Assembly (NCBI GenBank): GCA_026004495.1
Contig: BPJG01000001.1
Coordinates: 2,672-66,671 of the forward strand
Direction of reading: 5' to 3'
Source: Candidatus Parcubacteria bacterium
GTDB lineage: Bacteria > Patescibacteriota > Minisyncoccia > UBA6257 > HR35
DNA length: 64,000 nt
Part shown: piece by piece, positions 14,435-63,087 of the stretch
How positions within the stretch are numbered: the stretch's first letter is position 1
How the letters are laid out: each line of letters begins with the position of its first letter
The notes under the pieces: model-generated
The model's input: the letters and a program-made list of their open reading frames with translations, nothing else
What the model was told of the DNA's origin: nothing
The model's database searches: none
Program-made: the position numbers and the translations under genes

Positions 14435-14496
14435 ATTAAAAACTTGATAATGATTATTTTATGCAATAATATTTTTGAATAAATATTAAAATTGAA

Positions 14497-15000
14497 GTAA
14501 CTTGCATTAATGTTGGTTGCGTACTATCAAAATTTTTAATTAATAAAGTAAAAATAAGTGTTTTAAAAAATCATTATTTAAATTTTGCTGAAGTTATTGA
14601 AGAAGAAATAAATTTAGTTAACTTAGTACCTTATACAATCTTTACTGATCCAAAATTAGCTGACATTGGTTTTACTGAAGAAAGTGAATTGAAAGAATTA
14701 AATGTTTGTGCTTGTCGTGTTTTGAAATTAAAATTTGTACCCAAAGAAAGAATAATTAAAGAAACTGATGGTTTAATAAAAATGCTGATTAATCCTAAAA
14801 CAAAAGAAATAACTGGTCTTCATCTTTTAGCATCATTTGCTAGTGAAATTATCAATCAAGGAATCTGGTTAATTAAAAATAAAATGACAATTGATGATGT
14901 TATTAATTCAATGCCTGTTTTTCCAACAATTTCTAAATCAATTAAACTTTGCGCTTTAAGTTTTTATAAAGATGTCGCCAAAATTAGTTGTTGTATCTAA
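14497..15000 (+). pseudogene. merA: Remnant of a class I pyridine nucleotide-disulfide oxidoreductase, most likely mercuric reductase MerA. The redox-active CxxxxC motif is fused directly to the C-terminal dimerisation domain and the C-terminal Cys-Cys pair; the central ~300 aa are missing.
   Basis: TCINVGCVLSK (disulfide active site), then ...VPYTIFTDPKLADIGFTEE ... LHLLASFASEIINQGIWLIKNKMTIDDVINSMPVFPT ... KISCCI*. No start codon and no FAD/NAD(P) domains. Confidence 0.55.
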
Positions 15001-15187: not shown

Positions 15188-15529
15188 ATGATAATCACTC
15201 TTTCGAGTTTAATATCGCTTAATTTAATATTTTTTATTTATTTGATGACACGCAGATTTACGCAGACTACACGTAGAACTACGCAGACAGTTATTAAGTC
15301 AACATCCACAACCATCATTGGCACTTTATCAGCAATTTTTTCAGGAATTTTAGCAACTGCTTTCTGCTCTTCTTGTTTAGTTGCTTTATCTAGTATTTTA
15401 GGAATTAGCTTTGCTTTAGGAATTTTGCTTTTAAAATACAGATTTTGGATTTTTATTATCTCAATCATTATCCTTTTAATTTCTCTCCACCTCACTTCAA
15501 AAAAGATAAACAAAAATTGTAATCGCTAA
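15188..15529 (+). CDS. Small polytopic membrane protein with CSSC in a TM segment, carrying an in-frame CGCAGAC-element insertion (TRRFTQTTRRTTQT)
   Basis: Three or four hydrophobic segments and ATAFCSSCLVAL. The repeat at 15249..15289 lies inside the ORF. Confidence 0.4.
   Translation: MIITLSSLISLNLIFFIYLMTRRFTQTTRRTTQTVIKSTSTTIIGTLSAIFSGILATAFCSSCLVALSSILGISFALGILLLKYRFWIFIISIIILLISLHLTSKKINKNCNR
15249..15289. repeat. 41-bp (ACGCAGAnnn)x4 mini-element, near-identical to 31659..31699
   Basis: acgcagatttacgcagactacacgtagaactacgcagacag. Confidence 0.8.
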
Positions 15530-31193: not shown

Positions 31194-32720
31194 TTGTACA
31201 AAAAATGTTTTAAAATGAAGTATTTTAAATATTTTTTTAATCTATTACTTACTCTGATTATTTTTGCGTTTTTTATCTTATTAATATTTAATTCACAAAT
31301 CAAAAAATTATTTTTTAAACCTCAAGAAATTATTGGCCAAAAATTAGAACAGTTAAAAAATGATAGTGATTTTGAAATTATTCTAGAAAATTTAGAAATT
31401 CCTTGGTCGATTATTTTTTTAAATCAAAATGAAATTTTAATTACTGAAAGACTAGGTAAGATAAAAATTTTAGAATTAAAAGATAAAAAATTAGTAAAAG
31501 AATTTAAAATAACACAAGTAAAACATATTGGCGAAGGAGGACTCTTAGGCACAACTCTGCATCCAAATTTTAAAGAAAATAATTTTATCTATTTTTATTA
31601 CACAACTGAAAAAAGTGGAAATTTAATTAATCGGGTTGAAAGATATACTTTAAAAATAAACGCAGATTTACGCAGACTGAACGCAGACTTACGCAGACAA
31701 GATAAAAATTATTATTTAACTAAAGATAAGATTATTTTAGATGATATTCCAGCTGGTAGATTTCATAATGGGGGAAGAATAAAATTTGGTCCCGATGGTT
31801 ATTTATATATAACAACTGGAGATGCCGGTAATTCAGAAAATTCTCAAAATATCAATTCTTTAGCTGGGAAAATTTTAAGATTAAAAGATGATGGTTCAAT
31901 TCCCAAAGATAATCCATTTAAAAATGCAATTTTTGCTTATGGAATTAGAAATTCTCAAGGAATTACTTGGGACGATGAAGGCAATTTATGGTCAATTGAC
32001 CATGGAAGGTCAGGAATTCAAACAGGATTAGATGAAATAAATCTAATTCAAAAGGGTAAAAATTATGGTTGGCCAGTTATTCAAGGAAATGAAAGAATGA
32101 AGGAAATGGAATCTCCAGTTATTCACTCAGAACCAAATATCACTTGGGCACCGGCAGATTTGATTTATTATAACAATTCTTTATTTTTTACTGGCTTAAG
32201 AGGTGAAGGTTTATATCAATATGATTTAATTAATAAAAAATTAAAAGTTAATTTTTTCCAAAAATTTGGAAGATTAAGGGCTATAACTTTAGGACCAGAT
32301 GGTTATTTTTATATTTCAACTTCAAATAGAGATGGAAGAGGTTATCAAAGAAAAGGTGATGATAAAATAATAAAAATTAATCCTGAAATATTTTTTGATT
32401 TTATAAATTATAATTTAGAAGGCAAAAATTATAAACTTTTAATTGCTAATGAACCATTAGAATGGAGCAGGGGATTAATGTTTGTAAAAAAGACACTAAA
32501 TAATAAAGAAAATAAATTTGACGGTATGATTTTTATTTTCCCTGATAAACAAACTAGATCTTTTTGGAACAAAAATACTTTTGTTGATTTAGATATTTAT
32601 TGGTTAGATGATAATAAAATTGTTGGTAAAGACTTTTTGCCTTCAATTGAAAAAACAAAAGAAATCTATACTCTAATTTCTCCAGCACCAGTAAATAAAG
32701 TAATTGAAATAATAAAATGA
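31194..32720 (+). CDS. PQQ-dependent soluble sugar (glucose/sorbosone) dehydrogenase beta-propeller domain fused to a C-terminal DUF192 domain. Carries an in-frame CGCAGAC-element insertion.
   Basis: GEGGLLG, FGPDGYLYITTGD, IFAYGIRNSQGITWDDEGNLWSIDHG and C-terminal ...DGMIFIFPDKQTRSFWNKNTFVDLDIYWLD (DUF192). Insert NADLRRLNADLRRQ. Confidence 0.65.
   Translation: MYKKCFKMKYFKYFFNLLLTLIIFAFFILLIFNSQIKKLFFKPQEIIGQKLEQLKNDSDFEIILENLEIPWSIIFLNQNEILITERLGKIKILELKDKKLVKEFKITQVKHIGEGGLLGTTLHPNFKENNFIYFYYTTEKSGNLINRVERYTLKINADLRRLNADLRRQDKNYYLTKDKIILDDIPAGRFHNGGRIKFGPDGYLYITTGDAGNSENSQNINSLAGKILRLKDDGSIPKDNPFKNAIFAYGIRNSQGITWDDEGNLWSIDHGRSGIQTGLDEINLIQKGKNYGWPVIQGNERMKEMESPVIHSEPNITWAPADLIYYNNSLFFTGLRGEGLYQYDLINKKLKVNFFQKFGRLRAITLGPDGYFYISTSNRDGRGYQRKGDDKIIKINPEIFFDFINYNLEGKNYKLLIANEPLEWSRGLMFVKKTLNNKENKFDGMIFIFPDKQTRSFWNKNTFVDLDIYWLDDNKIVGKDFLPSIEKTKEIYTLISPAPVNKVIEIIK
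31659..31699. repeat. 41-bp (ACGCAGAnnn)x4 mini-element, near-identical to 15249..15289
   Basis: aacgcagatttacgcagactgaacgcagacttacgcagaca. Confidence 0.8.
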
Positions 32721-44845: not shown

Positions 44846-45799
44846 ATGATATATATTATTTTAATTTCAGCTATAATAGGTTGTTATATTACTTATCATA
44901 TATATTCACACAAATATAAGAAAAAACCTTTAGTTTGCCCCTTAAAAGCTAAATGTGACCCAGTTATTCACAGTGAGTATTCTAAATTTTTAGGAATTGA
45001 AAATACAATTTTAGGTTTTACTTATTATGTTTTTATTTTAATTTTTCATTTATTATTTCTTATTTTTAAATTTAATAATTATTTCTTAGAATTTTTTGTT
45101 TTCAATTTATCACTTTTAGCTGTATTTTTTTCAATTTATTTAACATTTATTCAACTTTTTAAATTAAAAAAGTTTTGTAGTTGGTGTCTTTTATCTGCTT
45201 TATTATGTTTTTTGATTTTTATTAATTCATATTTAATTTATAAAGATACAATAATTAAAGCAGCAATTCAATTACAAAAATTAAGTATTTTTATTCATGC
45301 TTTAACTTCTGGAATTGCTTTAGGAATTGTTTCTGTAGTTGATTATCTGTTTTTTAAATTTCTAAAAGATAAAAAGATTGACGAAAAAGAAAAATCAATT
45401 TTAGATAATTTATCAGATTTTATTTGGTTAATTTTAGGATTAATTATTGTTTCTGGTGTTTTTATTTATTTGTCTGATATGGATAAATATCATAATTCTG
45501 TTAAGTTTATGCTTAAAATGATAATTGTCTTGATTATTGTTATTAATGGATTTTTAATGAATTTAATTGTTTCACCTAAATTAATTGAATTTGACTTTCA
45601 AAAATTAAACAATTTAAAAGAGAGAATTTTTATTTCGATGGGAGTTATTTCTATCACATCTTGGTTATTAGCTTTTATTTTAGGTAGATTAAAAACTATT
45701 CCCCTTAGTTTAATCGAGGCCTTAGGTTTATATTTATTGTTCTTAATAATAACTATAATTAGCAGTATTTTTTTTATTAAATTAAAATTGAAAAATTAA
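44846..45799 (+). CDS. Vitamin K epoxide reductase (VKOR)-family membrane protein with a C-terminal extension
   Basis: Cys pair in the first loop (CPLKAKCDP) and CSWC in TM4. Confidence 0.6.
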   Translation: MIYIILISAIIGCYITYHIYSHKYKKKPLVCPLKAKCDPVIHSEYSKFLGIENTILGFTYYVFILIFHLLFLIFKFNNYFLEFFVFNLSLLAVFFSIYLTFIQLFKLKKFCSWCLLSALLCFLIFINSYLIYKDTIIKAAIQLQKLSIFIHALTSGIALGIVSVVDYLFFKFLKDKKIDEKEKSILDNLSDFIWLILGLIIVSGVFIYLSDMDKYHNSVKFMLKMIIVLIIVINGFLMNLIVSPKLIEFDFQKLNNLKERIFISMGVISITSWLLAFILGRLKTIPLSLIEALGLYLLFLIITIISSIFFIKLKLKN

Positions 45800-45832
45800 A
45801 AGCCTCCTTTTAAATAAAAGGAGGCTTTTGCT
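45799..45832 (+). terminator. Rho-independent terminator
   Basis: AAAGCCTCC-loop-GGAGGCTTTTG. Confidence 0.7.
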
Positions 45833-45854
45833 TTATTTTGATTTCTTATATTTA

Positions 45855-45989
45855 TTAGATATTTTCTTCCTGATCATAAGAGGTTTCTTCATTTGCATTG
45901 CATTGACAACAATTTTGACAACCTTTACAAATTTGACATAATGATTCAGTAATTTGTTGGCAAACTTGACAAACGTTTTGATTTTCCAT
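45855..45989 (-). CDS. 44-aa Cys-rich (8 Cys) small peptide, MENQNVCQVCQQITESLCQICKGCQNCCQCNANEETSYDQEENI. Not in the ORF track.
   Basis: Clean ATG..TAA ORF in an otherwise empty 600-bp intergenic region. CxxC/CxxCxxCxxCCxC pattern. Confidence 0.4.
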   Translation of the reverse strand: MENQNVCQVCQQITESLCQICKGCQNCCQCNANEETSYDQEENI

Positions 45990-46415
45990 TTTTAGGGGAA
46001 TATTAAAAAAAATTTCGACCTTTTATTAAGTAATATATATTATAACATAATATAATATAACACATAGATTTAAAAAATAAATCTTAAATAAATTTAAAAA
46101 ATTATAGTGAAAATAGTTAACAATAAAAATTAGCAAAAAAATTTATTTGCTTGGATTAACAATAAATCTTTATTATGATTTTAATTTTAATAATAAACTA
46201 AGAAAAAATTTTTTTGAGATTTATGGACTTTAAAAATTAATTTGATTAGATTGTATTAAACAAATAAGTAATTTATCTCAATCAATCTATTTTTATTTTT
46301 ACAGAAACGTAATCCACTTTTTATCTCCCTATGGCAAGAAATTTATTGAATTTATAAAAAATTTCGAATAGACCTCGTTTTTAACTAATAAAGTTTTTAA
46401 CCAATAAATACAAAA

Positions 46416-46492
46416 ACATTCTAACATTCTATAGACTACAACCCACCCTCCACATCTTCCCGTTCTTTCGAACGGGCCCCTGTTAGAATGTT
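46416..46492 (+). ncRNA. GC-rich structured element: 12-bp perfect inverted repeat (AACATTCTAACA/TGTTAGAATGTT) enclosing a C-rich segment and an inner hairpin CCCGTTC-TTTC-GAACGGG. Function unknown (candidate sRNA or regulatory structure).
   Basis: Strong local GC enrichment and nested stems in a ~30% GC background, ~100 bp upstream of the methyltransferase gene. Confidence 0.35.
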
Positions 46493-46599
46493 GTTTCGTA
46501 TAAAAAGAGAAAAGGAGAAAAAAGGTATAAGAAAAATTGGAATGGTTTTTAAGATGTATAAAATTTATTATTCCTCAAGATATGCTAAAATTTAATTAA

Positions 46600-49197
46600 A
46601 TGGCACAGAATTACAAAGAAAAATTTTATGGGATATTAGAGGATATGTTTGTAGGAGATGCTGAGATAGAAGGGCAGGGAGGGTTTATTAATCTTTTAAA
46701 AATCAAGCAAAATTACTATCAAAAAGTTTTTAAACCAAAACTTGAAGAAAAAGTAAATGAAATTTTAACTAAATATCCAAATTTTGAGACAGAACTTTTT
46801 GAAAAACTTTATACATTCCTTTCTCGTTATTTTTCTGAATCAGGCTCAATTTATTTTGTTAATACTCCATCTTATCATCAAATTTATGAAAGAATTTACT
46901 CGGATAGAGAAGATGTAATTTTATTCTGGAAAACAAGAGATCTTTATTACATAAAAACAGATAGAATATATAAAAGTTTAGAAGTTGAAATAGAAAATTA
47001 TAAATTTTATTTTGATGTTTCAAAACTTGAATACAAAAAAGCAAACGAAAAAAGAGAAATAATTTATGAACTTGACAAAGATAAAACAACAAAAGATAAA
47101 ATTTACTTTTATGTTTATTATTCAGAAAGAGGAAAGACAACAAAAATTGAAGAGATATTAAAAGCATTAAAAAAGAAAGATATTAAACTTAATGAAGAAA
47201 TTTTGGAAAAAGCATTTAGAAGATTTGAGCAACAATCAGAAGTAGACTATTTTATTCATAAAAACGCAAAAGCTTTCTTATCAGAACAATTAAAACTTTA
47301 TATTTATAACTACCTTTTTAAAGAAGCTCAAAATTGGACAATTGAAAGAATTGATCAGATAAATAAATTTAAAGAAACCGTTGAACTTATAATTGATTTT
47401 GTTTCTAAATTTGAAGATGAATTAGTTAAGATATGGAATAAACCAAGATTTGTTTTAAATTCAAATTATGTAATAACTCTTGATAGAATAATAAAACAAA
47501 ACAAACAAAAAGGATTTGAAATTATAAAGAAAATAATTAAACATAAAAATTTTGATGAGCAAGTTAAGGAATGGAAAGAACTTGGAATTATTGATGAAAA
47601 CTTCAATAAGAATGAAATAATTGAAAAAGATTTAATAGGAGAAAATTTAAATTCAAAATACCAATTTTTGCCAATTGATACAAAATATTTTAAGGATTTA
47701 GAAATTGAAATTTTAGAACTTTTTGATGATTTAGATAATCAATTAGATGGTTGGCTAATAAAAAGTGAAAATTATCAAGCTTTAAATACAATACTTCCAA
47801 AATTTAAAGAAAAAGTACAAACGATTTATATTGATCCACCATTTAATAAAGAACAAGATGCTGATTATCTTTATAATGTTAAATACAAAGATGCTACTTG
47901 GATTACATTACTTGAAAATAGATTAAGATTGGCAAAAGATATTTTGAAGGATACAGGAAGCATTTTTGTAAGATGTGATTATAATGGCAATATGTTTGTT
48001 AAATTATTGATGAATGAAATTTTTGGAAAAGAGAATTTTAGAAATGAGATAATTTTACAGCGAGGTATGCAAACTAGAAAAGCGGAAAAAAGATTGTTAA
48101 ATAAAATCGATTCGCTTTTCTTTTATTTCAAAAGTTTAGAAAAAGGATACTTAAATATTTTACTACGAGAAAAGGAACATGTGATACATTTTAATGAAAC
48201 ATTAAAAGCATTGAAGAAACTGATCGAGCCCAAAGTTTTCGAAGAAATAAAAAATAAATTAAGCGAAACACTCTGGATGCCATTTTTAAGCATGCCAGGA
48301 GAACAAAAAACAAAAAATTCAAGAGAAATTTTTGGTATTAAACTTTATCCTCCCAAAGGAAGACATTGGGCATTTTCACAAGAGAATTTAAATTTGGCAA
48401 TTGAAAAAGGTATAGCGAGATTAGTTTGTAAAAATTGTGGAACTATAATATTAGATAAAAGCCAAATAGAAAATAGAAAATGCAAAAATTGTGGCGGAGC
48501 AGATTTAGAAGGACAAATTTATAGTTTATATAATCAAATAAATGATAATTGGACAGATATACCAGGTTACGAACAAGATCCAGATTTTCCTACTAAAAAC
48601 TCTGAAATTCTCTTAAAGCGTGTTATAGAATCAACATCTAACGAAGGCGATTTAGTTATGGATTTCTTTTTAGGAAGTGGTACAACAACAGCAGTAGCAC
48701 ATAAGCTCAAAAGAAAATGGCTTGGTGTTGAGATGGGTGAGCATTTTTACAGCGTGGTTTTGCCGAGAATGAAAAAAGTTTTGGCTTATGATAAATCTGG
48801 AATTTCAAAAGAAAAAGATATAAAAGAGAAATATAACGAAAACAATGCTGGAGGATTTTTTAAATACTACGAACTTGAGCAATATGAAGATATTTTAAGA
48901 AAAGCGAAATATCAAGATATAAACGAACCAAAAACATTATTTGATAAGGACTTTAATTATATTTTTATGCCTGATGAAAAAATGTTATCAGCATTAGAAA
49001 TTGATTATGAAAACAACAAAGTTAAATTTGATTTAAATAAAATTTACCCAAATATTGATATTGCTGAAACATTATTAAACTTGAAAGGAAAATGGATAAA
49101 GAAAATTACGAAAGATTATATTGAATTTGAGGATGGAGAAAAAATAGATTTAAATAATTTAGATTTAAAGTCGGTTAAAAATTTAATATGGTGGTGA
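46600..49197 (+). CDS. Large (865 aa) beta-class amino-DNA methyltransferase (Type III Mod-like N6A/N4C MTase). It has a ~400-aa uncharacterised N-terminal region and a Cys4 zinc ribbon.
   Basis: Motif IV IYIDPPFN precedes motif I VMDFFLGSGTT (beta-class order). CKNCG...CKNCGG ribbon in the presumed TRD. Confidence 0.75.
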   Translation: MAQNYKEKFYGILEDMFVGDAEIEGQGGFINLLKIKQNYYQKVFKPKLEEKVNEILTKYPNFETELFEKLYTFLSRYFSESGSIYFVNTPSYHQIYERIYSDREDVILFWKTRDLYYIKTDRIYKSLEVEIENYKFYFDVSKLEYKKANEKREIIYELDKDKTTKDKIYFYVYYSERGKTTKIEEILKALKKKDIKLNEEILEKAFRRFEQQSEVDYFIHKNAKAFLSEQLKLYIYNYLFKEAQNWTIERIDQINKFKETVELIIDFVSKFEDELVKIWNKPRFVLNSNYVITLDRIIKQNKQKGFEIIKKIIKHKNFDEQVKEWKELGIIDENFNKNEIIEKDLIGENLNSKYQFLPIDTKYFKDLEIEILELFDDLDNQLDGWLIKSENYQALNTILPKFKEKVQTIYIDPPFNKEQDADYLYNVKYKDATWITLLENRLRLAKDILKDTGSIFVRCDYNGNMFVKLLMNEIFGKENFRNEIILQRGMQTRKAEKRLLNKIDSLFFYFKSLEKGYLNILLREKEHVIHFNETLKALKKLIEPKVFEEIKNKLSETLWMPFLSMPGEQKTKNSREIFGIKLYPPKGRHWAFSQENLNLAIEKGIARLVCKNCGTIILDKSQIENRKCKNCGGADLEGQIYSLYNQINDNWTDIPGYEQDPDFPTKNSEILLKRVIESTSNEGDLVMDFFLGSGTTTAVAHKLKRKWLGVEMGEHFYSVVLPRMKKVLAYDKSGISKEKDIKEKYNENNAGGFFKYYELEQYEDILRKAKYQDINEPKTLFDKDFNYIFMPDEKMLSALEIDYENNKVKFDLNKIYPNIDIAETLLNLKGKWIKKITKDYIEFEDGEKIDLNNLDLKSVKNLIWW

Positions 49198-49201
49198 GAA
49201 G

Positions 49202-49669
49202 ATGGAAAATGAAATTTTAAAAATAATTTTAAATAATATATTACCTTCTGTTATTCTTTTTATTTTATATAAATTTGTAGAAGAATTTATAATAAAACCG
49301 CATTTGGAATACAAAAAAATAATAGCTAAAATTGATCATTTTTTGAAATTTTATCTCAATATAATTTGGAACATCAATCCACCTACTAGAACTAAGCCGT
49401 ATGAACCCTTACCCGAAGATTGGGGAAAAGCAAAAGAAACATTTAGAAACTTATCTTGCGAGCTAGAAGCTCAATATAAATCTATGATTTTAAAACGTTT
49501 TTTGCCCAATAAGAAGTATATTGACACTGCAATTAAGGATTTAATGATATTATCAAACATAATAGGCACTGTAAATGATTATAAAGGTGCATTTCAAAAC
49601 AAAGCAATTAACTTAGAAGAAGAAATTAGAACATGCTTAAGAATATCTCGAATGATCGATGAAAAATAA
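49202..49669 (+). CDS. Hypothetical 155-aa protein with an N-terminal TM segment, in the mod-res operon
   Basis: Begins 5 bp after the mod stop and overlaps the next gene by 11 bp. No motif recognised. Confidence 0.4.
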   Translation: MENEILKIILNNILPSVILFILYKFVEEFIIKPHLEYKKIIAKIDHFLKFYLNIIWNINPPTRTKPYEPLPEDWGKAKETFRNLSCELEAQYKSMILKRFLPNKKYIDTAIKDLMILSNIIGTVNDYKGAFQNKAINLEEEIRTCLRISRMIDEK

Positions 49670-50432
49670 AAATTTATCAATTAAGCAAAAACAAGAAATA
49701 ATAAGAAAGAAAGCAAGAGAAATATTAGAAAAACATAATGAGGGAATAAGATATATGGATTTAGTAAGAAAAGTTAAAGAAGAATGCCCGGGAATAGACT
49801 TGCGTAGAATTAAGTGGGAAGTTTGGTATTTACCAAGGATATCCCAAGATGTAATAAAACCCGAGAGAGGACTGCTTATTTTGAAAAAATATTATGAGGA
49901 AATTTCAAAAGGAGAAACAGAGGTAAAAGAAAAAAGAATTTATAGAATAGATGAATCTGTTTTTTATCAACATTTTGCTGATTATTTAGTGAATGAATTA
50001 GAAGAATGTACAAAAGCTATATCATTGGGAGGAAGTAGATTCCAGGATAAGTGGGGAACTCCTGATGTATTGGGAATATATAAAATTTCTGAAACTGAAC
50101 CCATAAGACCTTTGCCTGAAATAATAAGCGCTGAAATAAAAATTGATATTAATCAATTAATAACTGCTTTTGGCCAGGCTTGTGCTTATAAATTATTTAG
50201 TCATAAAGTTTATTTAGTTGTGCCTAAGGATGCTTCGCCTGTGGATTTGAGCAGATTAGAATCTTTATGCTTAAGATTTAGTATTGGTTTAATAACTTTT
50301 GATAGAAATAATTCTCAAAATCCAGATTTTAGAATAATAACGAGAGCAATTAAAAGCGAACCTGATTATTTTTATGTTAATGAATATTTAAGAAGATTAG
50401 ATAAAAGAGATTTAAAAGAGTTATTTGGATAA
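49659..50432 (+). CDS. Hypothetical 257-aa protein: N-terminal winged-helix-like region plus a possible PD-(D/E)xK-like (Mrr/restriction-endonuclease-like) core
   Basis: ...GGSRFQDKWGTPDVLGIYK...PEIISAEIKID (candidate D...ExK). Overlaps the res start by 8 bp. The fold assignment is speculative. Confidence 0.35.
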   Translation: MKNKNLSIKQKQEIIRKKAREILEKHNEGIRYMDLVRKVKEECPGIDLRRIKWEVWYLPRISQDVIKPERGLLILKKYYEEISKGETEVKEKRIYRIDESVFYQHFADYLVNELEECTKAISLGGSRFQDKWGTPDVLGIYKISETEPIRPLPEIISAEIKIDINQLITAFGQACAYKLFSHKVYLVVPKDASPVDLSRLESLCLRFSIGLITFDRNNSQNPDFRIITRAIKSEPDYFYVNEYLRRLDKRDLKELFG

Positions 50433-53304
50433 ATTTATGAATATTAAACTTATCTTAAAAAACATACTTGAAAACATTGATTTAAACGATCTATCTTCTA
50501 ATTGGCATAATTTTGATTTTGAGAGTTTTTCGAAAGATAAGAAGCTTTATGATTTTCAAATTGAGGCGTTAGAGAATTTTTTAAAAGTTTTGTGGTTTTA
50601 TTACGAAAAAGACTTTGATTACCAAGAAGGAGAAAATTTAGAAATCAATGATAAAAGAAAAGAAAAATTGTTTAAAGAATATTTAGATTATGATTTAAAT
50701 CATAAAGATGTTTCTCTTAAATACAAGGAAGAAAAGAAACATAAATTTATTTTTGAGTATTATCCTTTAGAAAATGAAGAAATAAATTTTAAGCATCTGG
50801 TGAATAGAGCTGGGTTTTGGATGGCGACAGGAAGTGGAAAAACATTAGTAATTGTTAAAATTATTGAATTTTTAAGAGAATTGATAAAAAGAAAAGAAAT
50901 TCCTAATTTTGATATTTTATTTTTAACTCACAGAGAAGACTTAATAAATCAATTTAAAAAGCATATTGAAGAATATAATGAAGGTATGGAAGATAAAATT
51001 ACAGTTTATGATTTAAAAGAATACGAAGAATTAAAAAGAAATTTATTTTGTCAAAATTTTGTTTTTTACTATAGAGCTGATTTGTTTTCTGATGAAGAAA
51101 AAGAAAAGATTGTAGATTTTAGAAATTATTATAATGATGGGAAGTGGTTTGTAATTTTAGATGAAGCTCATAAAGGTGATACTGAAGAATCAAAAAGACA
51201 ACATATATTTTCAATACTTTCTAAAAATGGATTTCTATTTAATTTTTCAGCAACTTTTAGTGATCCTATTGATTTAATTACCACTTGTTTTGAATATAAT
51301 CTTTCAACATTTATTGAAAATGGTTATGGAAAGAAAATTTATATTTCAGATTATGAAGCAAGAGTTTTTAAGAATAAAGATGATTTTAGACAAAAAGAAA
51401 AGCAAAAAATTATTTTAAAAGGGTTAATTCTTTTCACTTATATTAAAAAGCAGTTAAATAAAATTAGAGAAAAAATTTTAAATGCTTATCATAATCCATT
51501 ACTCCTTGTTTTAGTGAATTCTGTAAATCAAGAAGATGCTGATTTAAAGTTATTTTTTGAAGAAATTAAAAACATAGTAGAAGGGAGTTTTGATAAGGGT
51601 TTAATTGAAGAAACTAAAAATGAATTAATTAAAGAATTTAAAGAAAAAGAAGAATTTGTAATTCCGGAAAATGATAAATTAAAGATAGATTTTAATTTGC
51701 TTTCAGAAATAAATTATCAGGATATTTTAAAAGATGTTTTTAATTCTGGTGAAGAAGGAAAAATAGAAATTTCTTATAGTCCCAGAGAAAAAGGAGAAGT
51801 TGCTTTTAAATTAAAAACATCTACTTCTCATTTTGCTTTGATTAAAACAGGAGCTATGCCAGATTGGCTTGAAAGTTCTTTAAATAAATTTGAAGTTAAT
51901 CATAAATTTGAAAACGAGAAGTTTTTTGAAGAAATAAATAGTGAAAATTCATCAATAAATATATTATTAGGTTCAAGAGTTTTTTATGAAGGATGGGACT
52001 CAAACAGACCAAATATTATTATGTTTATAAATATAGGTACGCAAAAAGATGCTAAAAAATTCGTTTTACAATCAATTGGAAGAGGTATAAGAATTGAACC
52101 GATAAAAAATGAAAGAAAAAGATTTTTGTATATTAAAGAAAAAATGGGTGAAGTTTTTGATGAAATTAAAGATTATATTTCGTCGATAGAAAGTTTATTT
52201 ATTTTTGGAACTAATAAAAATGCTATTGAAACTATAATTAAAGAGGTTAATACATTCAAAAAAGAAACATTTAGGGGTGTTAAAATCTCTCTTTTCAAAA
52301 ATGTTGAAGCAATCAAAGAGAATATTTTGTTAGTACCGAAATATAAAGAGGGAGAAAAAAGAATTTTTGAAGAAGAGATTAGATATGGAATTTCTGAAAA
52401 TGATTTTGAAAAATTAAAAGAATTTAATGAATTTATTAGAGATGACAGAGTTTTGTTAATGTTTTTTAATACTGAACCAAAATTAATTAAATATTTTAGG
52501 GAATCTTTGACTAAGCAAGTTGAATTAGATAGCGGAAATTATTATAAAAAAGCAGATTTAGAAAGAGTGGATGTTAAGGTAATTTTAACTGATATTTTTA
52601 GTTTTTGGGGAGCAAGATTTAAAGATTTTGAAAAGCTGGAGGAATTAAAAGATGAAATAAGGCATTTTGAAAATGTTGTTATTGAAGAAGCTAAATTCAA
52701 AGATTTTAACTCTATAAAAGAAGCTGTTTTGAGCACAAAAAGAAGTTTACCGTTTGAAAATTTGAAATTGGAATATATAGCTAATCATTATTATTTCCCT
52801 TTAATTTTAAGTAAAGATGAAAAAATTGATTATATTAAACATATCATTAAAACAAAAAGTGAAGTTGAATTTATTGAAAAACTTGAAAATTACTTAGATT
52901 CAGAAAATAATAAATTTAAAGAATTTGATTGGTGGATGTTTAGTAAAATTGATGAGAGTTTAGACGAAGTTTATATTCCTTATTATGATATTGAAAAAGG
53001 TTCTATAAGAAAATTTAAACCAGATTTTATATTTTGGCTTAAAAAAGCTAATAATTATTTTATTGTTTTTGTTGATCCAAAATCTACAAAATTCACTGAT
53101 TATGAAAATAAAATTTCTTGGTATAAAAGATTATTTGAAAAGAATGACAAACTAAAGGCTTTTGAATATAAAAACTTGAAATGTTATGTATATTGTTTCT
53201 TATATACCGATGATAAAGACAAAGTGAAAAATTTTGGTTATGAAAATTATTGGTTTGAAAGTATAGATGATATGTTGGCAAAAATTCTAAAAATGTCTTT
53301 TTAA
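50425..53304 (+). CDS. Type III restriction Res-like protein: SF2 DEAH helicase plus a C-terminal PD-(D/E)xK nuclease
   Basis: Walker A MATGSGKTLV, DEAH box VILDEAHKGD, motif III FSATFSD, motif VI QSIGRGIRI and C-terminal KPDFIFW..(15)..VDPK. Confidence 0.75.
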   Translation: MDKFMNIKLILKNILENIDLNDLSSNWHNFDFESFSKDKKLYDFQIEALENFLKVLWFYYEKDFDYQEGENLEINDKRKEKLFKEYLDYDLNHKDVSLKYKEEKKHKFIFEYYPLENEEINFKHLVNRAGFWMATGSGKTLVIVKIIEFLRELIKRKEIPNFDILFLTHREDLINQFKKHIEEYNEGMEDKITVYDLKEYEELKRNLFCQNFVFYYRADLFSDEEKEKIVDFRNYYNDGKWFVILDEAHKGDTEESKRQHIFSILSKNGFLFNFSATFSDPIDLITTCFEYNLSTFIENGYGKKIYISDYEARVFKNKDDFRQKEKQKIILKGLILFTYIKKQLNKIREKILNAYHNPLLLVLVNSVNQEDADLKLFFEEIKNIVEGSFDKGLIEETKNELIKEFKEKEEFVIPENDKLKIDFNLLSEINYQDILKDVFNSGEEGKIEISYSPREKGEVAFKLKTSTSHFALIKTGAMPDWLESSLNKFEVNHKFENEKFFEEINSENSSINILLGSRVFYEGWDSNRPNIIMFINIGTQKDAKKFVLQSIGRGIRIEPIKNERKRFLYIKEKMGEVFDEIKDYISSIESLFIFGTNKNAIETIIKEVNTFKKETFRGVKISLFKNVEAIKENILLVPKYKEGEKRIFEEEIRYGISENDFEKLKEFNEFIRDDRVLLMFFNTEPKLIKYFRESLTKQVELDSGNYYKKADLERVDVKVILTDIFSFWGARFKDFEKLEELKDEIRHFENVVIEEAKFKDFNSIKEAVLSTKRSLPFENLKLEYIANHYYFPLILSKDEKIDYIKHIIKTKSEVEFIEKLENYLDSENNKFKEFDWWMFSKIDESLDEVYIPYYDIEKGSIRKFKPDFIFWLKKANNYFIVFVDPKSTKFTDYENKISWYKRLFEKNDKLKAFEYKNLKCYVYCFLYTDDKDKVKNFGYENYWFESIDDMLAKILKMSF

Positions 53305-53363
53305 AATCTATTAATATATTAAATCTATGTAATTTTCATTATTCATTGTCATAGTAGAAAATA

Positions 53364-53900
53364 ATGAAAAATTACTTAGTAATTAAACGAAAAGTGAAGT
53401 ATTTGAGGTTGGAGATAAGGGAGTTTAATTTGAGGGTGATTGTGCCGGAGGGGTTTAGTGGAGATGTTGAGAAAGTTATTGAAAGACATAAAAGGTGGTT
53501 GGAGAAAAAATTTGCTTTGTTGAATGAAATAAAAAGTTTGAGTGAAGGTTTGGAAATTTATAATCACGAGAATTTAGAAGAAATTGTTGATGGATATATA
53601 GATGAAATTAGTCAGATTTTGAAAGTAAGGCCAAAAGAAGTTTCTTTTAGAAATATGAAAGTAAGATGGGGAAGTTGTACTTCAGATGGAAGATTGATTT
53701 TTAATAAAAAATTAAAATTTTTGCCGAAAGAACTTATAAGATATGTTGCTATTCACGAAATGTGTCATTTGTTAGTAAGAAATCATAAAAAAGAATTTTG
53801 GCAATTAGTGGAGAAATTATGTCCTGAATTCAAGAATTATCAAAAGTTGTTAGTGGGGTATAAGATGAGATTAGAGAATAATTTTAAACTATCTTATTAA
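53364..53900 (+). CDS. DUF45/YgjP-like (WLM/SprT-like) zinc metallopeptidase, a type commonly encoded next to R-M helicase subunits
   Basis: HExxH: RYVAIHEMCHLLVRNHKKEFW. Confidence 0.7.
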   Translation: MKNYLVIKRKVKYLRLEIREFNLRVIVPEGFSGDVEKVIERHKRWLEKKFALLNEIKSLSEGLEIYNHENLEEIVDGYIDEISQILKVRPKEVSFRNMKVRWGSCTSDGRLIFNKKLKFLPKELIRYVAIHEMCHLLVRNHKKEFWQLVEKLCPEFKNYQKLLVGYKMRLENNFKLSY

Positions 53901-54017
53901 ATTATTGTGTAATGGTTAACAATAGGATTGTTTTTTTATTATTTCCGAAATGTATTTATCTTTTTCTTAAATAAGTTTAGTGGTTTCTATTTTCCTTTAA
54001 AATTAAGAAATATAATT

Positions 54018-54089
54018 TGGGCGCAGGAGGATTTGAACCTCCGACCTCCTCGATGTGAACGAGGCGTTCTGCCACTGAACTATACGCCC
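54018..54089 (-). tRNA. tRNA-Val (anticodon CAC)
   Basis: GGGCGUAUAGUUCAGUGGCAGAACGCCUCGUUCACAUCGAGGAGGUCGGAGGUUCAAAUCCUCCUGCGCCCA: cloverleaf with a 7-bp acceptor stem, the GGUUCAAAUCC T-arm and anticodon loop UUCACAU. CCA is not encoded. Confidence 0.9.
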
Positions 54090-54244
54090 TTAATATTTTT
54101 GTTTTTTATTTATATTTTTGTTATTTTTTAGATAAATAGATATAATTTAATTTTATCAAAATTTTCAGTTTTAATCTTATTTCATTTATAATTTTGAATA
54201 ATTTAAGGTTGATAACAATAACTTAAAAAACTTAAAATAATATT

Positions 54245-54922
54245 ATGACCGAAAAAACTATTTATCTTTCACCATCAAAACTTAATTTATTTTTAAATTG
54301 TCCTTTATGTTTTTGGTTAAGTGAAGTTGAAAAAGTTCATCGACCAGAAGGAATTTCTTCAACTTTGCCAAGAGGAATGGATCTATTAATTAAAAAATAT
54401 TTTGATAAGTACAGAGCTTTAGGTAAATTACCGCCAGAAATTGAAGGCAAAGTGAGAGGAAAATTAATTAATGAAAGCATTTTAAAAAAATGGCGAACAA
54501 CTCACAAATATAGTGAACCATTTTATTACAATGAAAGATTAGATGCAGTTCTATTTGGTGGATTAGATGAATGTTTGGTCGATGATGAATATTATATTCC
54601 TACTGATTATAAAACTTATGGCTTTGAATTAAAAGAAAACTCTCATTCTTTTCATCAATTACAACTTGATGCCTATACTTTAATGCTTCAGGCTAACGGC
54701 TATAAACATTTAAACTTAGCTTATTTAATTTATTATATTCCTCAAGAAATTAAAGAAAATGGAGTAATTAAGTTCAAAGTTGAAGTAGTTGAAGTTAAGA
54801 CAAATCCAGAAAATGCAAAAATGATTTTTGAATCAGCAATTAATCTCTTAAGAGGGCCAAAACCAAAATCCCATAGTGAATGCGAATATTGCTCTTGGAC
54901 AAACGAGTTTTTTAAGCATTAG
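54245..54922 (+). CDS. Cas4/RecB-family PD-(D/E)xK exonuclease-like protein with a 4-Cys cluster (stand-alone; no CRISPR array or other cas genes present)
   Basis: N-terminal Cys (NCPLCFWL), IPTDYKTYG (D/ExK), the QLQLDAYTLML (QxxxY) motif and C-terminal CEYCSW. Confidence 0.55.
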   Translation: MTEKTIYLSPSKLNLFLNCPLCFWLSEVEKVHRPEGISSTLPRGMDLLIKKYFDKYRALGKLPPEIEGKVRGKLINESILKKWRTTHKYSEPFYYNERLDAVLFGGLDECLVDDEYYIPTDYKTYGFELKENSHSFHQLQLDAYTLMLQANGYKHLNLAYLIYYIPQEIKENGVIKFKVEVVEVKTNPENAKMIFESAINLLRGPKPKSHSECEYCSWTNEFFKH

Positions 54923-54934
54923 CAAATACCTCTT

Positions 54935-56062
54935 ATGATCATAAATAATTCATTATTTAAGTTTGGTATTGAGCATGAAATTGCTTTAGTTAATAAAAAT
55001 GGTAAATTTTTGGATCATAGAAGTTTAAGCTTAAATAGTTTAAATAAAATTATTCAAAAATTTCCTGTTTATCAAAATGATTATCAGTATTTGAGAATTG
55101 GTGATTTGGGTATTAAAGTTAAAAGAGTTTATGTAGAGGGTTTAGAGATCTTTGATAAAGATGGTTATTTAATAAAACAATATCCTAAAGGATTAGAATT
55201 AAGAACAAGACCTAATAGTAATATTGATCATTTATTTGCTGAGTTTTTAAGTGATTTTAATTTTATTTCCAAAAGCTTAAAACAATTTAAAATCCAACCA
55301 ACATTTTTAAGTTTTAATCCGTATTTAGATAGAGTAAATATAAAAATTGAACTACATTCTTATGAGAAAAAATTAAGAAGTGAGGACCCAGGAAGAAAAA
55401 CTGCTTCTTTTACTTTACTTACTTTTGGTCCTGATATAAATATTTCTTTTTCTGAATTAAGTGATAAAGGTATTTTAGATATTATTTTGAAACTTAATTA
55501 TTATGCTCCTTTTATTGTGCCCCTTACCTTTTCTTCGCCATTTTATAAAGGTAAATTATGGGATGGTTATTCAGTTAGAACTTATTTCCGTTCACAGTTA
55601 AGGCCATCGGCAGTTGGTTTTATTAATGATAAAAATTTGCTTTTAAAATATTCAGATAAGTGGATATTAAATAAAAATAGAACAGAAAGTGAGAGTGGGA
55701 GAATTGAATTTAAGGCAATTGATACTATTTGGGATATTAAAATTTATAAAGGTCTTTTTATAATTTTAAAGGGTTTGATTTTAGAAAATAATTTAAAGGG
55801 TAGAGCAGAATGGTCAGATAAAAAATTAATGGAGTTATCAGCTAAATATGGTTTTGATGATAATTTAATTTATGATGGTGCTTATGAGGTTTTATCTACC
55901 TGTTATAAAATTATTAGAAACAATGAAGAAAGAAAATATTTAAAATATCTATTTGAAGTTTTAAAGAAAAAATGGAATTTTAGTAAAATATTAATTAGTG
56001 ATTTTAAAAAATTCGGATCAATAAATAAAGTTCTAATAAAATATGACAAATTTAAAATATGA
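54935..56062 (+). CDS. Hypothetical protein, weakly resembling the carboxylate-amine ligase/GCS2 family
   Basis: N-terminal FGIEHEIALVNKNGKF resembles the GCS2 start. Otherwise unsupported. Confidence 0.3.
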   Translation: MIINNSLFKFGIEHEIALVNKNGKFLDHRSLSLNSLNKIIQKFPVYQNDYQYLRIGDLGIKVKRVYVEGLEIFDKDGYLIKQYPKGLELRTRPNSNIDHLFAEFLSDFNFISKSLKQFKIQPTFLSFNPYLDRVNIKIELHSYEKKLRSEDPGRKTASFTLLTFGPDINISFSELSDKGILDIILKLNYYAPFIVPLTFSSPFYKGKLWDGYSVRTYFRSQLRPSAVGFINDKNLLLKYSDKWILNKNRTESESGRIEFKAIDTIWDIKIYKGLFIILKGLILENNLKGRAEWSDKKLMELSAKYGFDDNLIYDGAYEVLSTCYKIIRNNEERKYLKYLFEVLKKKWNFSKILISDFKKFGSINKVLIKYDKFKI

Positions 56063-57627: not shown

Positions 57628-59805
57628 TTAATCTCTAATAACAATTTTATTTTCAAAACCTCGTTCTTTTAATAATCTTATTAATTCTTCATCTTTACTA
57701 CTTACAAAGAAGTATCCACCTATTTCTTCTAACTTACCCAAATTTTTTATAGGAGCGTATCTAAAAAAGGCATCACCTCTTATTATTCTTAAATTTCCTA
57801 AATCTTCCACTTTGGAATTTCTAAAAAAAGCATTACCCCTAATTTCCTCTAAGTTTTTTAATGTTTTAATTCTTGATCTTTCAAGAAAGACATGACCTCC
57901 TATTATTCTTAAATTTCCCAGATCTTCTACTTCGGAATTCTTAAAAAAAGCATTACCTCTAATTTCCTCTAAATTTTTTAATGTTTTAATTCTTGATCTT
58001 TCAAAATTGGCATCACCTTCTATTATTCTCAAATTTCCCAGATCTTCTACTTCGGAATTCTTAAAAAAAGCATTACCTCTAATTTCCTCTAAATTTTTTA
58101 ATGTTTTAATTCTTGATCTTTCAAAATGAGTATCACCTCTTATTATTCTCAAATTTCCCAGATCTTCTACTTCGGAATTACTAAAATAAGTATTACCTCC
58201 AATTTCCTCTAAGTTTTTTAATGTTTTAATTCTTGATCTTTCAAAAAAGGCATCACCTCTTATTATTCTTAAATTTCCCAAATCTTCTACTTCGGAATCA
58301 CTAAAATCAGCATTACCTGAGATAAATGTTAGTTTCTTAGGAAAATAAGTCCACTTTTGTGGCATTAGATAGACTAAATAATCATACACAACAACTGTTT
58401 CATCTGTAATTTCAATAGTTTCTGTAGTAATTTGCTCTTCTCGGCAATTAAAAATTTTAGATAAGTCTTTTTTAAGATTTCGTCTTCTTAAAATATTATT
58501 TATTCTTTCATCTATTTCATAGCCAAATCCTACTATATCTCTATCTATTTCATATAAAAATTTTAATTCTTCGAGATCTAATTCTTGATTGTTTAAATAT
58601 TTGATATAAATTTCTGCTAATCTGTTCATATCTTCAGTCGCTTGAAGATATCTTTCTGATCCAGGTAAAATTATTTTTTTTTCTTCTATTTCTAATCCTT
58701 CAGTTAAAGATTTCTTAACAACAGGAGTAATATATTGGTCTAAATTCTGACCCTTAGAAATTCCTCTTATTTCAGTTATTTGATTTAAATTTCTATTAAA
58801 AACTATCGCAACTCTAGGTATCGTAGGATTACCTTCATTATCTTCTGAAAAATAAATATAGATATCGGAGTGTGATAAATAATTTTTTGCCGTTTCTTCA
58901 CCAGCAATACACCAGTTAGTATTAAAACCCCCTATTGCTTTAATTAAATCTTTAGGATTAGAGGCTTGCGAAAACAATTTCCACTTACCTTCAGTAATAA
59001 TTAATTTTTCTTCAGGAAGCTTAAGGCTATTTACGTATTCTAATAACCATGGGTATAGTTTTCTAAAATCTTCAGATTGAATAAGTTTTTGTAATTCTTT
59101 TTGTTGCTCCTCGTTTAAATTTGTTAATCCTGATGGTTCTCCCTTTTCTTTTCTAATAAGTTCATCAATTAAAAGACCTAGGGCTTGTGAATTTAGTTCA
59201 GGAAAGGTAGCAACTGTTGTTTCTGTTCTTTTATTATATTCTTTTCTTATTTCATCATAAGCACCACATCTTAAAACTTCAGCAAAAATCCAATATCTAA
59301 ATTCAGTAGGATAATTTTCAGCCTCAGGAGAAGTTAAATAATCAAACCAAGTATCTAAGCTTCTTTTTTGATCTTCAATTATTTGTTGGATTAATTGTTG
59401 TTTTTCTTGTTCTGGAACTTGATAAGTCTCAAAAGATTGACCTATTCGCTTTTCAAATAACTCAATTACGGCTTGCCTAATTTGTGGTTCTCGTAATTCT
59501 TCTCTTGTATGACCTAATATTTCGGCAAAATTAACCAATAAAACATTTTTAAAATAGTCTGATGGTATATTTTCTGGTTTAATAATAAATTTTTTATAAA
59601 GTATTTGTTTTTTAAATAATTCTTTTCCACTTTCTTTTTTTAGGATATCTATAATTCTTTGAATATAATAAGGAATTTGATCTTTGGGATTAGGAGGAAT
59701 TTTACCTATTTTTCTTTTGCTTGACCTTGATACAGCTTCCCTAAAATCTTCAAACTTCCAATAATTTCTTTTTAAAAATTTTTCTGGCTTAAAAATTTCT
59801 GGCAT
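57628..59805 (-). CDS. Large protein with a C-terminal array of BspA-type leucine-rich repeats (about six 40-aa/120-bp near-identical units) and an uncharacterised N-terminal domain
   Basis: Repeating TLKNLEEIRGNAFFKNSEVEDLGNLRIIRGDAFFERSRIK. The nucleotide repeats are highly similar over ~57700-58320. Confidence 0.6.
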   Translation of the reverse strand: MPEIFKPEKFLKRNYWKFEDFREAVSRSSKRKIGKIPPNPKDQIPYYIQRIIDILKKESGKELFKKQILYKKFIIKPENIPSDYFKNVLLVNFAEILGHTREELREPQIRQAVIELFEKRIGQSFETYQVPEQEKQQLIQQIIEDQKRSLDTWFDYLTSPEAENYPTEFRYWIFAEVLRCGAYDEIRKEYNKRTETTVATFPELNSQALGLLIDELIRKEKGEPSGLTNLNEEQQKELQKLIQSEDFRKLYPWLLEYVNSLKLPEEKLIITEGKWKLFSQASNPKDLIKAIGGFNTNWCIAGEETAKNYLSHSDIYIYFSEDNEGNPTIPRVAIVFNRNLNQITEIRGISKGQNLDQYITPVVKKSLTEGLEIEEKKIILPGSERYLQATEDMNRLAEIYIKYLNNQELDLEELKFLYEIDRDIVGFGYEIDERINNILRRRNLKKDLSKIFNCREEQITTETIEITDETVVVYDYLVYLMPQKWTYFPKKLTFISGNADFSDSEVEDLGNLRIIRGDAFFERSRIKTLKNLEEIGGNTYFSNSEVEDLGNLRIIRGDTHFERSRIKTLKNLEEIRGNAFFKNSEVEDLGNLRIIEGDANFERSRIKTLKNLEEIRGNAFFKNSEVEDLGNLRIIGGHVFLERSRIKTLKNLEEIRGNAFFRNSKVEDLGNLRIIRGDAFFRYAPIKNLGKLEEIGGYFFVSSKDEELIRLLKERGFENKIVIRD
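57700..58320. repeat. 120-bp near-identical tandem repeats (x5-6) encoding the LRR units
   Basis: Visible periodic repetition of '...attacctctaatttcctctaaatttttt aatgttttaattcttgatctttcaa...'. Confidence 0.8.
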
Positions 59806-62118: not shown

Positions 62119-63087
62119 TTATTCTTCTTCTTTTAATTTTCCCTCTATTAACTCCTGAGCTTTTTCTAGAAAAGTATTAGGAAAGTAAATAGCTAATTCT
62201 TTTCTTAAACTTAGATTTAATTGAGGATATTGTTGTTCTAATATATTTAACCTTTCTTTAACTTTCCTTAAAAATTCTTCAGGATTATTAGGTTTTTTAG
62301 GACTAGGAGGATAATTAACGACAGCATGGTTTATTATCCAATAATCTATATCTTGAAATTCAGGATTATTTTTAATTTCTTCAATTTTTGTTTTAAATTT
62401 TCTTAAAAATTCTTCAGGATTAGTAGGATTATGAGTAACAGCATGTTTTATTATCGAATCATCCATATCTTGAAATTCAGGATTGTTTTTAATTTCTTCA
62501 ATGTTTATCTTAACTTTTCTTAAAAATTCTTCAGGATTACTATAATAAACAACAGAACGTTTTATCATCCAATAATCTATATCTGGAAATTTTTGCTCCA
62601 ATTCATCAATTACCCTTGGTGGAAAAATATATACATGGGAAGCAATTTGAAGTATTGTTTTAGGTGTAATTTCATATTTTTCTTTTTCAATTTTTCTTAA
62701 ATAGTGATGCAGTGTACTTCTGAAATTTAAGACATAGCCAGTTATTAAAGTTTCTAAAATTTGTCTAAATTCTTCTTCTGATGTAGGATTTTGGGGTAAA
62801 TCTCCTAGTCTATAAGCAGCCTTGATATTAAATCTTAATCCTTTTTCAAAATATTCTTTTAATTCTTCATTTTCAATTCCTAATTCTTTTGCTAATTCTC
62901 TGATTTTTTCTTCATTATTTTTACCTTCAGGAGTTTGCCTTAATTCTTCTAATAAATTTTCTGCTTGATCTAAATAATCTTTCAATAACTTACTTTCTCC
63001 ACCTCTTGCATTCACTTTTCTTTCTTTTATTTCCTTTCTTATCTCTTCTTGTTTACCTAATCCCTCTTTTGCTTTTTTATATTCCAT
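62119..63087 (-). CDS. Hypothetical protein with ~37-aa internal tandem repeats (NPEEFLRKxK..IEEIKNNPEFQDxD)
   Basis: Three repeat units at the protein and nucleotide level (~62290-62600). Confidence 0.4.
   Translation of the reverse strand: MEYKKAKEGLGKQEEIRKEIKERKVNARGGESKLLKDYLDQAENLLEELRQTPEGKNNEEKIRELAKELGIENEELKEYFEKGLRFNIKAAYRLGDLPQNPTSEEEFRQILETLITGYVLNFRSTLHHYLRKIEKEKYEITPKTILQIASHVYIFPPRVIDELEQKFPDIDYWMIKRSVVYYSNPEEFLRKVKINIEEIKNNPEFQDMDDSIIKHAVTHNPTNPEEFLRKFKTKIEEIKNNPEFQDIDYWIINHAVVNYPPSPKKPNNPEEFLRKVKERLNILEQQYPQLNLSLRKELAIYFPNTFLEKAQELIEGKLKEEE

Follow-up and report, generated by a model that had tools for sequence, protein, structure and literature searches.

We analysed a 64,000-nucleotide (nt) stretch of DNA from a Candidatus Parcubacteria bacterium (assembly GCA_026004495.1, contig BPJG01000001.1, positions 2,672 to 66,671 of the forward strand; hereafter the window), in which a methyltransferase gene (mod) and a helicase-nuclease gene (res) are separated by two small genes, here termed g2 and g3 (Table 1). 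The reading we favour, and regard as probable, is that the locus combines a canonical Type III restriction-modification system, made up of two genes and belonging to a long-Mod subfamily (the pair found in Thermocrinis albus), with two unrelated passengers that lie in the mod-res junction and are co-expressed with the operon. A first-pass annotation, made from the sequence by a model, had proposed an expanded Type III system with g2 and g3 as accessory parts, a proposal that does not agree with the adjacency of mod and res in 34 of 66 relatives and in T. albus, nor with the finding that most homologues of g3 lie away from this Mod and this Res.

Mod, a protein of 865 amino acids (aa), has the organization of a Type III beta-class amino-methyltransferase, in which motif IV precedes motif I and a target-recognition region lies between them: IYIDPPF (DPPF at about residue 413) stands ahead of FLGSGTT (about residue 690), with CKNCG...CKNCGG in between. 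The protein matches Pfam N6_N4_Mtase (7.5e-42), and its catalytic parts match the solved Type III Mods 6k0w (5e-18) and EcoP15I (4zcf, 3e-12) in the PDB, in keeping with its first description as a beta-class enzyme with a Cys4 ribbon. Residues 3-865 match the PADLOC profile MTase_III PDLC03638 over positions 2-816 of 816 (E 8e-298); taken by themselves, the first 397 residues match positions 2-394 (2e-151), indicating that the seemingly unexplained N-terminus belongs to a catalogued Type III Mod subfamily. The first-pass annotation had taken the protein to be oversized, with an uncharacterised N-terminus, and had named an ordinary Type III Mod with a known N-terminal domain as one outcome that would speak against its idea; on this point, that is what the profile, together with the 841-aa Mod of T. 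albus, reveals. Judging from the DPPF of motif IV, the predicted modification is N6-methyladenine (m6A).

Res joins a superfamily 2 (SF2) helicase/ATPase core to a C-terminal PD-(D/E)xK nuclease, as expected of a Type III Res. Its motifs are MATGSGKT, DEAH, QSIGRGIR and, near the C-terminus, KPDF...VFVDPK, and alignments of the family show GSGKT, DEAH, SAT, QxxGRGxR and the C-terminal E...PDF...(D/E)PK to be invariant. Among Pfam families, ResIII (1.9e-17), SWI2_SNF2 and DEAD were matched. Full-length Res gave no match in PADLOC, a miss that we attribute to a filter artefact, given that the core (aa 101-622) matches REase_III PDLC03654 at 5e-23 and that homologues of Res match REase_III too. 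Searches against the PDB, by sequence and by profile, returned only marginal helicase matches and provided no structural anchor. At least 5,522 proteins belong to the Res family, and several carry the label 'type III restriction enzyme' in their sources. In the cultured T. albus DSM 14484 (CP001931), an 841-aa Mod is followed by a 974-aa Res with nothing between them; this Mod is 60% identical to that of the window over residues 8-865, and the Res, annotated as 'type III restriction protein res subunit', is 52% identical over its full length. Profiles and invariant motifs thus bear out the initial assignment of both genes to a Type III mod/res operon, including the DEAH helicase with a C-terminal nuclease, and we predict with high confidence that the operon makes a Mod2Res-type enzyme.

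The genes mod and res lie on the same strand, mod first, with no terminator between them, and are separated by g2 and g3. Between mod and g2 there is a 4-nt gap (not the 5 bp given in the first reading), g2 and g3 overlap by 11 nt, g3 and res overlap by 8 nt, and 59 nt separate res from the DUF45 peptidase gene downstream; res is read from a TTG start, with an alternative ATG at 50437. The tight packing of five genes was thus correctly described, as were the translational coupling of the two intercalated genes and the motifs named for Mod, Res and DUF45, all of which can be read in the translations. The overlaps of 11 and 8 nt suggest that g2, g3 and res are expressed in a coupled manner. No terminator-like hairpin occurs within 46600-53900, and the strong hairpin that closes the upstream VKOR gene is the sole such site in 45700-55000. 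A promoter scan returned 64 matches compared to 61 expected from shuffling, which makes it uninformative on promoters in this DNA of 25% G+C.

To see how mod and res are arranged in relatives, we used a metagenome scan with the Res alignment (80 loci) and four further loci found by look-up, of which 73 hold both genes (loci are numbered with the prefix L). The gap between mod and res is 30 nt or less in 38 of the 73 loci and 196-3241 nt in the other 35, and, after near-identical loci had been collapsed, mod and res are adjacent in 34 of 66 loci and separated by an insert of 0.2-3.2 kb in 32. In about 29 of these 32 inserts there is an open reading frame (ORF) of 90 aa or more, in most cases on the same strand as the operon. 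Many relatives thus have the two-gene form, and in about half of the related loci the junction carries inserted genes.

Much of the cargo whose domains can be read is defence-like or toxin-antitoxin-like. The largest cluster, of eight ORFs, combines AlbA_2 with HATPase_c_4 (representative in L106), and the same domains occur in a ninth locus (L084). Other junctions hold a KAP NTPase, pairs of an MNT nucleotidyltransferase with HEPN/HepT, DUF6119, a PHP-SMC protein, AAA_15/AAA_21 ATPases with a small partner, a ThsB-type TIR protein with a partner, RhuM with Fic, an AbiU2 HEPN protein (L003) and an AAA_13 protein, AAA_13 being the family that contains PrrC and RloC. Several cargo families are without annotation. 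The junction of an HR35 relative (L002, bacterium HR35) holds four cargo genes, namely g2, g3 and a pair at 10923-12382 that encodes an AAA_15/21-like ATPase of 330 aa with a partner of 156 aa and that recurs in L087 and L148. We considered a PARIS-like identity for this pair and set it aside, as PDB sequence searches lent it no support. A cargo family of about 270 aa, with the N-terminal motif FIFSDE(S/C)G(S/Y)W, also recurs (L013, 1546-2352; L085, 7195-8004; L089, 1062-1898), and its member in L085 has no Pfam match.

The first passenger, g2, is identical to the hypothetical protein KatS3mg095_0516 of a Candidatus Parcubacteria metagenome-assembled genome (MAG). A word-indexed search recovered three relatives and an exhaustive HMMER search 116 representatives. 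Members of the family are about 130-170 aa long and have in common a hydrophobic helix at the N-terminus and the motifs KIDNxLKFY, LRxLSCxLE and LSN. The g2 protein itself is a helical bundle whose N-terminal helix is predicted to be transmembrane, consistent with the membrane protein first noted here. Where the context of homologues is readable, they stand in strings of small unannotated genes with HTH_17, SLT_2, CSD or DUF5677, outside restriction-modification loci. Only three loci (the window, L001 and L002) carry g2 in the mod-res slot, and in other loci of the form Mod-x-g3-Res its position is taken by unrelated genes, such as AbiU2 (L003) and the 270-aa family (L013). Thus, g2 represents a small family with no link to restriction-modification elsewhere, and its occurrence in unrelated gene strings argues against the earlier suggestion that it is part of a module.

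The second passenger, g3, is identical to the hypothetical protein KatS3mg095_0517 of a Candidatus Parcubacteria MAG and matches no family in Pfam, NCBIfam or PADLOC, apart from a single sub-threshold match to WH_Rok. We retrieved 3,265 homologues at E <=0.001 (over 3,200 sequence clusters); among the matches listed, the best 120 are all at least 55% identical, and a scan with one genome per species placed g3 in 350 species of bacteria and archaea. Alignment of the family revealed the invariant residues E116-C117, W132-G-T-P-D136-V, S157-x-E159-x-K161 and Q173, which form a classical PD-ExK site whose predicted catalytic residues, D136, E159 and K161, are intact. The AlphaFold model (mean predicted local distance difference test score, pLDDT, 85.2) shows a winged helix at the N-terminus together with a nuclease core, so that the initial call of a winged-helix protein with a possible PD-(D/E)xK domain agrees with both the fold model and the invariant residues. 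In joining a winged helix to a PD-(D/E)xK domain g3 is Mrr-like in architecture, without sequence homology to Mrr_N/Mrr_cat or to the DpnI-type winged helix. Neither g3 nor the helical-bundle protein g2 has a Pfam match to AAA_13 or HEPN, or the PrrC/RloC architecture of an ABC ATPase joined to HEPN.

In the closest relatives, g3 stands ahead of Res in the order Mod, none to two genes, g3, Res (L001-L003, L005, L007, L011), and L020, whose contig begins just upstream, has g3 followed by Res. In L010 and L013, g3 separates the mod and res genes of another Type III family; in L025, a locus of a third family, the order is Res-g3-Mod; and in L109, L115 and L137 g3 comes directly downstream of Res of the window's own family. 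In nine loci spanning two Res families, the gap between g3 and Res is 2-37 nt. The recurrence of g3 beside mod/res elsewhere, which the first-pass annotation had proposed to check, is thereby confirmed (L003, L005, L007 and L011 among others). Most of the 80 g3 loci examined hold neither the window's Mod family nor its Res family; their neighbours include Type IIG enzymes (L061, Novosphingobium pSA1), Type II enzymes, methyltransferases, GmrSD, HicB and other toxin-antitoxin genes, a TraI relaxase and housekeeping genes, and the family is usually found outside Type III loci. The identity of g3 holds steady at 55-58% while that of the adjoining Res drops from 60% to 23%. Together, these neighbourhoods and the steady identity portray g3 as a self-contained module with a marked yet non-obligate affinity for restriction-modification loci. 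None of 50,697 phage records contains g3, which was found on one megaplasmid and in 4 of 2.9 million viral contigs; we set aside a phage-borne or anti-defence origin, since g3 is essentially absent from phages, plasmids and viral contigs.

Comparison with a syntenic sister genome (GCA_026004515.1, locus L001; approximately 85-92% DNA identity) revealed a mosaic. The DNA of g2 and g3 is 100% identical in the two genomes, and a tract extending from the 3' end of mod into res (8953-12379 in L001) has 1 mismatch in 3,427 nt, in flanks that are 80-90% identical: over the remainder of res we counted 13-38 mismatches per 200 nt, and identity in the 5' part of mod is about 85%. Just upstream of this tract, the segment encoding the target-recognition region of Mod has no blastn match to L001, and protein identity there falls to 18-22% (aa 501-650), compared to 84-100% on both sides. 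This pattern indicates that the junction block was recently exchanged by recombination and that specificity was swapped in a separate event, both of which are typical of restriction-modification loci. The shared tract points to movement of the block by homologous recombination, with the conserved 3' part of mod and 5' part of res serving as arms. When the edges of the g2-g3 insert were searched for direct or inverted repeats, only low-complexity AT-rich matches emerged. In L001, a pair encoding a 58-aa protein and a PIN protein (VapBC-like) lies just upstream of mod (6332-6876), and NYN and His_Phos_1 genes lie between res and a truncated DUF45 gene (13684-14963).

In Type III systems, the Mod dimer recognises a short asymmetric site, of which it methylates one strand, and the Mod2Res complex uses ATP to enter a sliding state and cuts unmethylated DNA carrying inversely oriented sites. 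The enzyme of the window would accordingly place m6A on one strand of an asymmetric site and cleave unmethylated DNA after ATP-triggered sliding. Our best guess for g3 is an independent second layer of nuclease defence, an autonomous enzyme that would be carried along by transcription of the operon; this view is supported by the many genomes in which g3 stands alone and has kept its catalytic residues intact. Such a nuclease would likely be harmless to host DNA and would need either a foreign feature, such as modified bases (in the manner of Type IV enzymes) or a special DNA structure, or some form of activation. The product of g2 may act as an independent accessory membrane protein.

Other explanations of the inserted genes have to be weighed against this one. 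By analogy with PrrC, g3, possibly together with g2, could be a latent toxic nuclease that Mod and Res inhibit and that phage anti-restriction sets free, causing abortive infection; g3 is indeed nested between restriction-modification genes like prrC in EcoprrI (PMC3710099, PMC12707154), it is translationally coupled with res, and other cargo of the junction is of the abortive-infection or toxin type (AAA_13, HEPN, Fic, TIR). We nevertheless judge such a guardian role unlikely, because most g3 homologues have no restriction-modification partner to mask them, so that g3 must be tolerable alone, and because g3 is devoid of an ATPase or sensor domain and its sequence is decoupled from the divergence of Res. 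It is also conceivable that g2 and g3 are true subunits of a four-component Type III enzyme and alter its recognition or cleavage, for example by cutting the second strand or by forming a DNA clamp. The tight packing with overlapping stops and starts, the short g3-Res gaps kept in nine loci with two Res families, the 0 or 1 nt differences over g2-g3 between the sister genomes and the precedent of Type III operons that include a third gene (PMC8259958) all fit this idea, which is made improbable by the lack of any insert in cultured T. albus and in 34 of 66 relatives, by the unrelated genes that fill the slot elsewhere, by the restriction of g2 to three such slots while its 116 distant relatives occur in contexts without a restriction-modification link, and by the intact nuclease motif of Res itself.

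The strong conservation of g3 across bacteria and archaea in highly variable neighbourhoods, the recent transfer implied by the near-identical tract and the weak resemblance of its winged helix to Rok would all be accommodated if g3 had no defence role of its own and were either a mobile nuclease gene that invades restriction-modification loci by cut-and-repair or a winged-helix protein that regulates res. We give this little credence, as flanking repeats and insertion scars are lacking and g3 hardly occurs in phages, on plasmids or in viral contigs, while the invariant catalytic residues count against a pure regulator. Some observations weigh against the passenger reading that we prefer. More often than chance would allow, g3 adjoins Type IIG enzymes and the Res-type helicase-nucleases of at least three Type III families, so that it may depend on them functionally and not simply hitch-hike; unlike typical Type IV genes, g3 has a methyltransferase as its neighbour in about a quarter of its loci; and the overlap-coupled expression of g2, g3 and res would also fit a true subunit.

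The core system is of a known kind, resembling EcoP15I/EcoPI-type enzymes in its beta-class Mod with a target-recognition region between motifs IV and I, in its Res with SF2 and PD-(D/E)xK domains and in the position of mod upstream of res. It differs from EcoP15I in the Mod N-terminus, which is about 250 aa longer (as is normal for the subfamily), and in the two genes between mod and res. Type III junction passengers likewise follow a known principle, that of accessory toxins embedded in restriction-modification operons, for which PrrC is the paradigm; besides prrC in EcoprrI, HEPN, Fic and RhuM genes have been linked to restriction-modification (PMC3710099, PMC12707154). The locus shares with prrC, 'restriction-linked' genes and other embedded toxins of Type I loci (PMC3710099) the nesting of foreign genes in the operon and the diversity of cargo among relatives, but the host system is Type III here and Type I in EcoprrI, and g3 has a winged-helix DNA-nuclease fold rather than that of an ABC-ATPase-HEPN RNase. 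Winged-helix-nuclease fusions act as Type IV enzymes (PMC11037411), and g3 resembles Mrr, DpnI-like enzymes and such fusions in that a single polypeptide, mostly encoded by a solitary gene, unites a winged helix and PD-(D/E)xK. Some Type III operons include an extra gene that encodes a helicase-like SF2 ATPase, located 5' of mod and conserved in >500 genomes (PMC8259958); the window likewise has a Type III operon with additional genes, but here they are two small genes in the mod-res junction, and the system occurs without them in many relatives.

In the literature searched, we did not find the junction-passenger principle described for this Type III family. The cargo slot extends the picture of genes housed in restriction loci, known mainly from Type I, and offers a way to mine new defence genes, and g3 brings to light a very large, strongly conserved and uncharacterised winged-helix nuclease family that repeatedly stands beside restriction-modification genes. 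If g3 is an autonomous or guardian nuclease, it would constitute a new small defence module that is common in candidate-phyla bacteria and in archaea, where few defence systems have been tested. Type III and Type IIG enzymes methylate one DNA strand only. A bolder and more doubtful proposal, which we offer tentatively, is that the g3 family, with proteins of about 250 aa, is a new, widespread single-gene nuclease module that prefers such one-strand-methylating systems (three Type III families and Type IIG), possibly as a modification-dependent second layer or a sensor-effector back-up, and that defence cargo has, in the mod-res junction of this Type III family, a 'docking site' not described before, like Type I hsd loci.

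Table 1. Features of the Type III locus and its surroundings, in positions of the window
Feature	Positions	Strand	Description
Bidirectional terminator-like hairpin	45797-45830		15-pair stem followed by a T-run; closes the upstream VKOR gene; left limit of the unit
mod	46600-49197	+	865 aa; Type III beta-class amino-methyltransferase
Mod target-recognition region	48051-48596	+	aa ~484-665, with the CxxC...CxxC ribbon; non-homologous in L001
Near-identical tract	48611-52037	+	3' end of mod, g2, g3 and 5' 1.6 kb of res; from comparison with L001
g2	49202-49669	+	155 aa; helical protein, predicted to be membrane-anchored; passenger gene 1
g3	49659-50432	+	257 aa; winged helix and PD-(D/E)xK nuclease fold; passenger gene 2
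res	50425-53304	+	959 aa; SF2 helicase with C-terminal PD-(D/E)xK nuclease; TTG start
DUF45/YgjP-like HExxH metallopeptidase	53364-53900	+	178 aa
tRNA-Val(CAC)	54018-54089	-	ARAGORN; Rfam tRNA, 71.2 bits; right limit of the unit
Solo Cas4-like PD-(D/E)xK nuclease	54245-54922	+	Two CxxC pairs; neighbour, outside the system

The gene that follows res encodes a DUF45 protein with the motif HEMCH, which belongs to PF01863 (Pfam YgjP-like, 3e-39, 135.6 bits against a cut-off of 26) and also matches WLM (2.5e-6). Its earlier identification as an HExxH peptidase is therefore upheld, and its inclusion in the operon less so: of 31 co-directional genes found next downstream of Res, 3 encode DUF45, the window being included in this count, and by locus it was seen after Res in L002, L087 and L088 only and in truncated form in L001. 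We consider DUF45 loosely linked to the system, possibly by co-transcription.

Beyond it, the tRNA-Val and the Cas4-like nuclease that had been reported are both present, with the amendments that the tRNA lies on the minus strand and that the nuclease falls below the curated cut-off for Cas4. The latter ORF matches PDDEXK_1 (1e-12) and PADLOC Cas4 (3e-11) and scores 40.1 bits with NCBIfam cas4 TIGR00372, under the cut-off of 65; the window has neither a CRISPR array nor cas genes, and we regard the product as a solo Cas4-like nuclease. On its flanks the locus has genes for BacA, VKOR, an oxidoreductase, CutA1 and PGI, and these housekeeping neighbours, together with the lack of a CRISPR array, contradict the view that the locus lies in a defence island. 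Solo Cas4-like nucleases lie near g3 in three unrelated loci, namely the window, L003 (14957-15625, a Patescibacteria MAG) and L035 (2917-3594, a Woesearchaeota MAG). Directly after the Cas4-like gene of the window is a 375-aa ORF without a Pfam match (54935-56062).

In the 800-nt gap upstream of mod, the minus strand (45855-45989) holds a 44-aa Cys-rich ORF with 10 Cys and several CxxC, which could be due to chance in AT-rich DNA. Elsewhere in the window, G+C-rich 21-nt tandem motifs at 5473-5515, 15248-15288 and 31659-31698, two of the three resembling ACGCAGACT and the third having a different unit, are possibly a dispersed repeat or terminator element. Longer tandem repeats were detected at 19679-19862 (96 nt x 1.9), at 62321-62591 (117 nt x 2.3) and at 57763-58318 (120 nt x 4.6), the last within a 725-aa minus-strand ORF with a match to the Receptor L domain.

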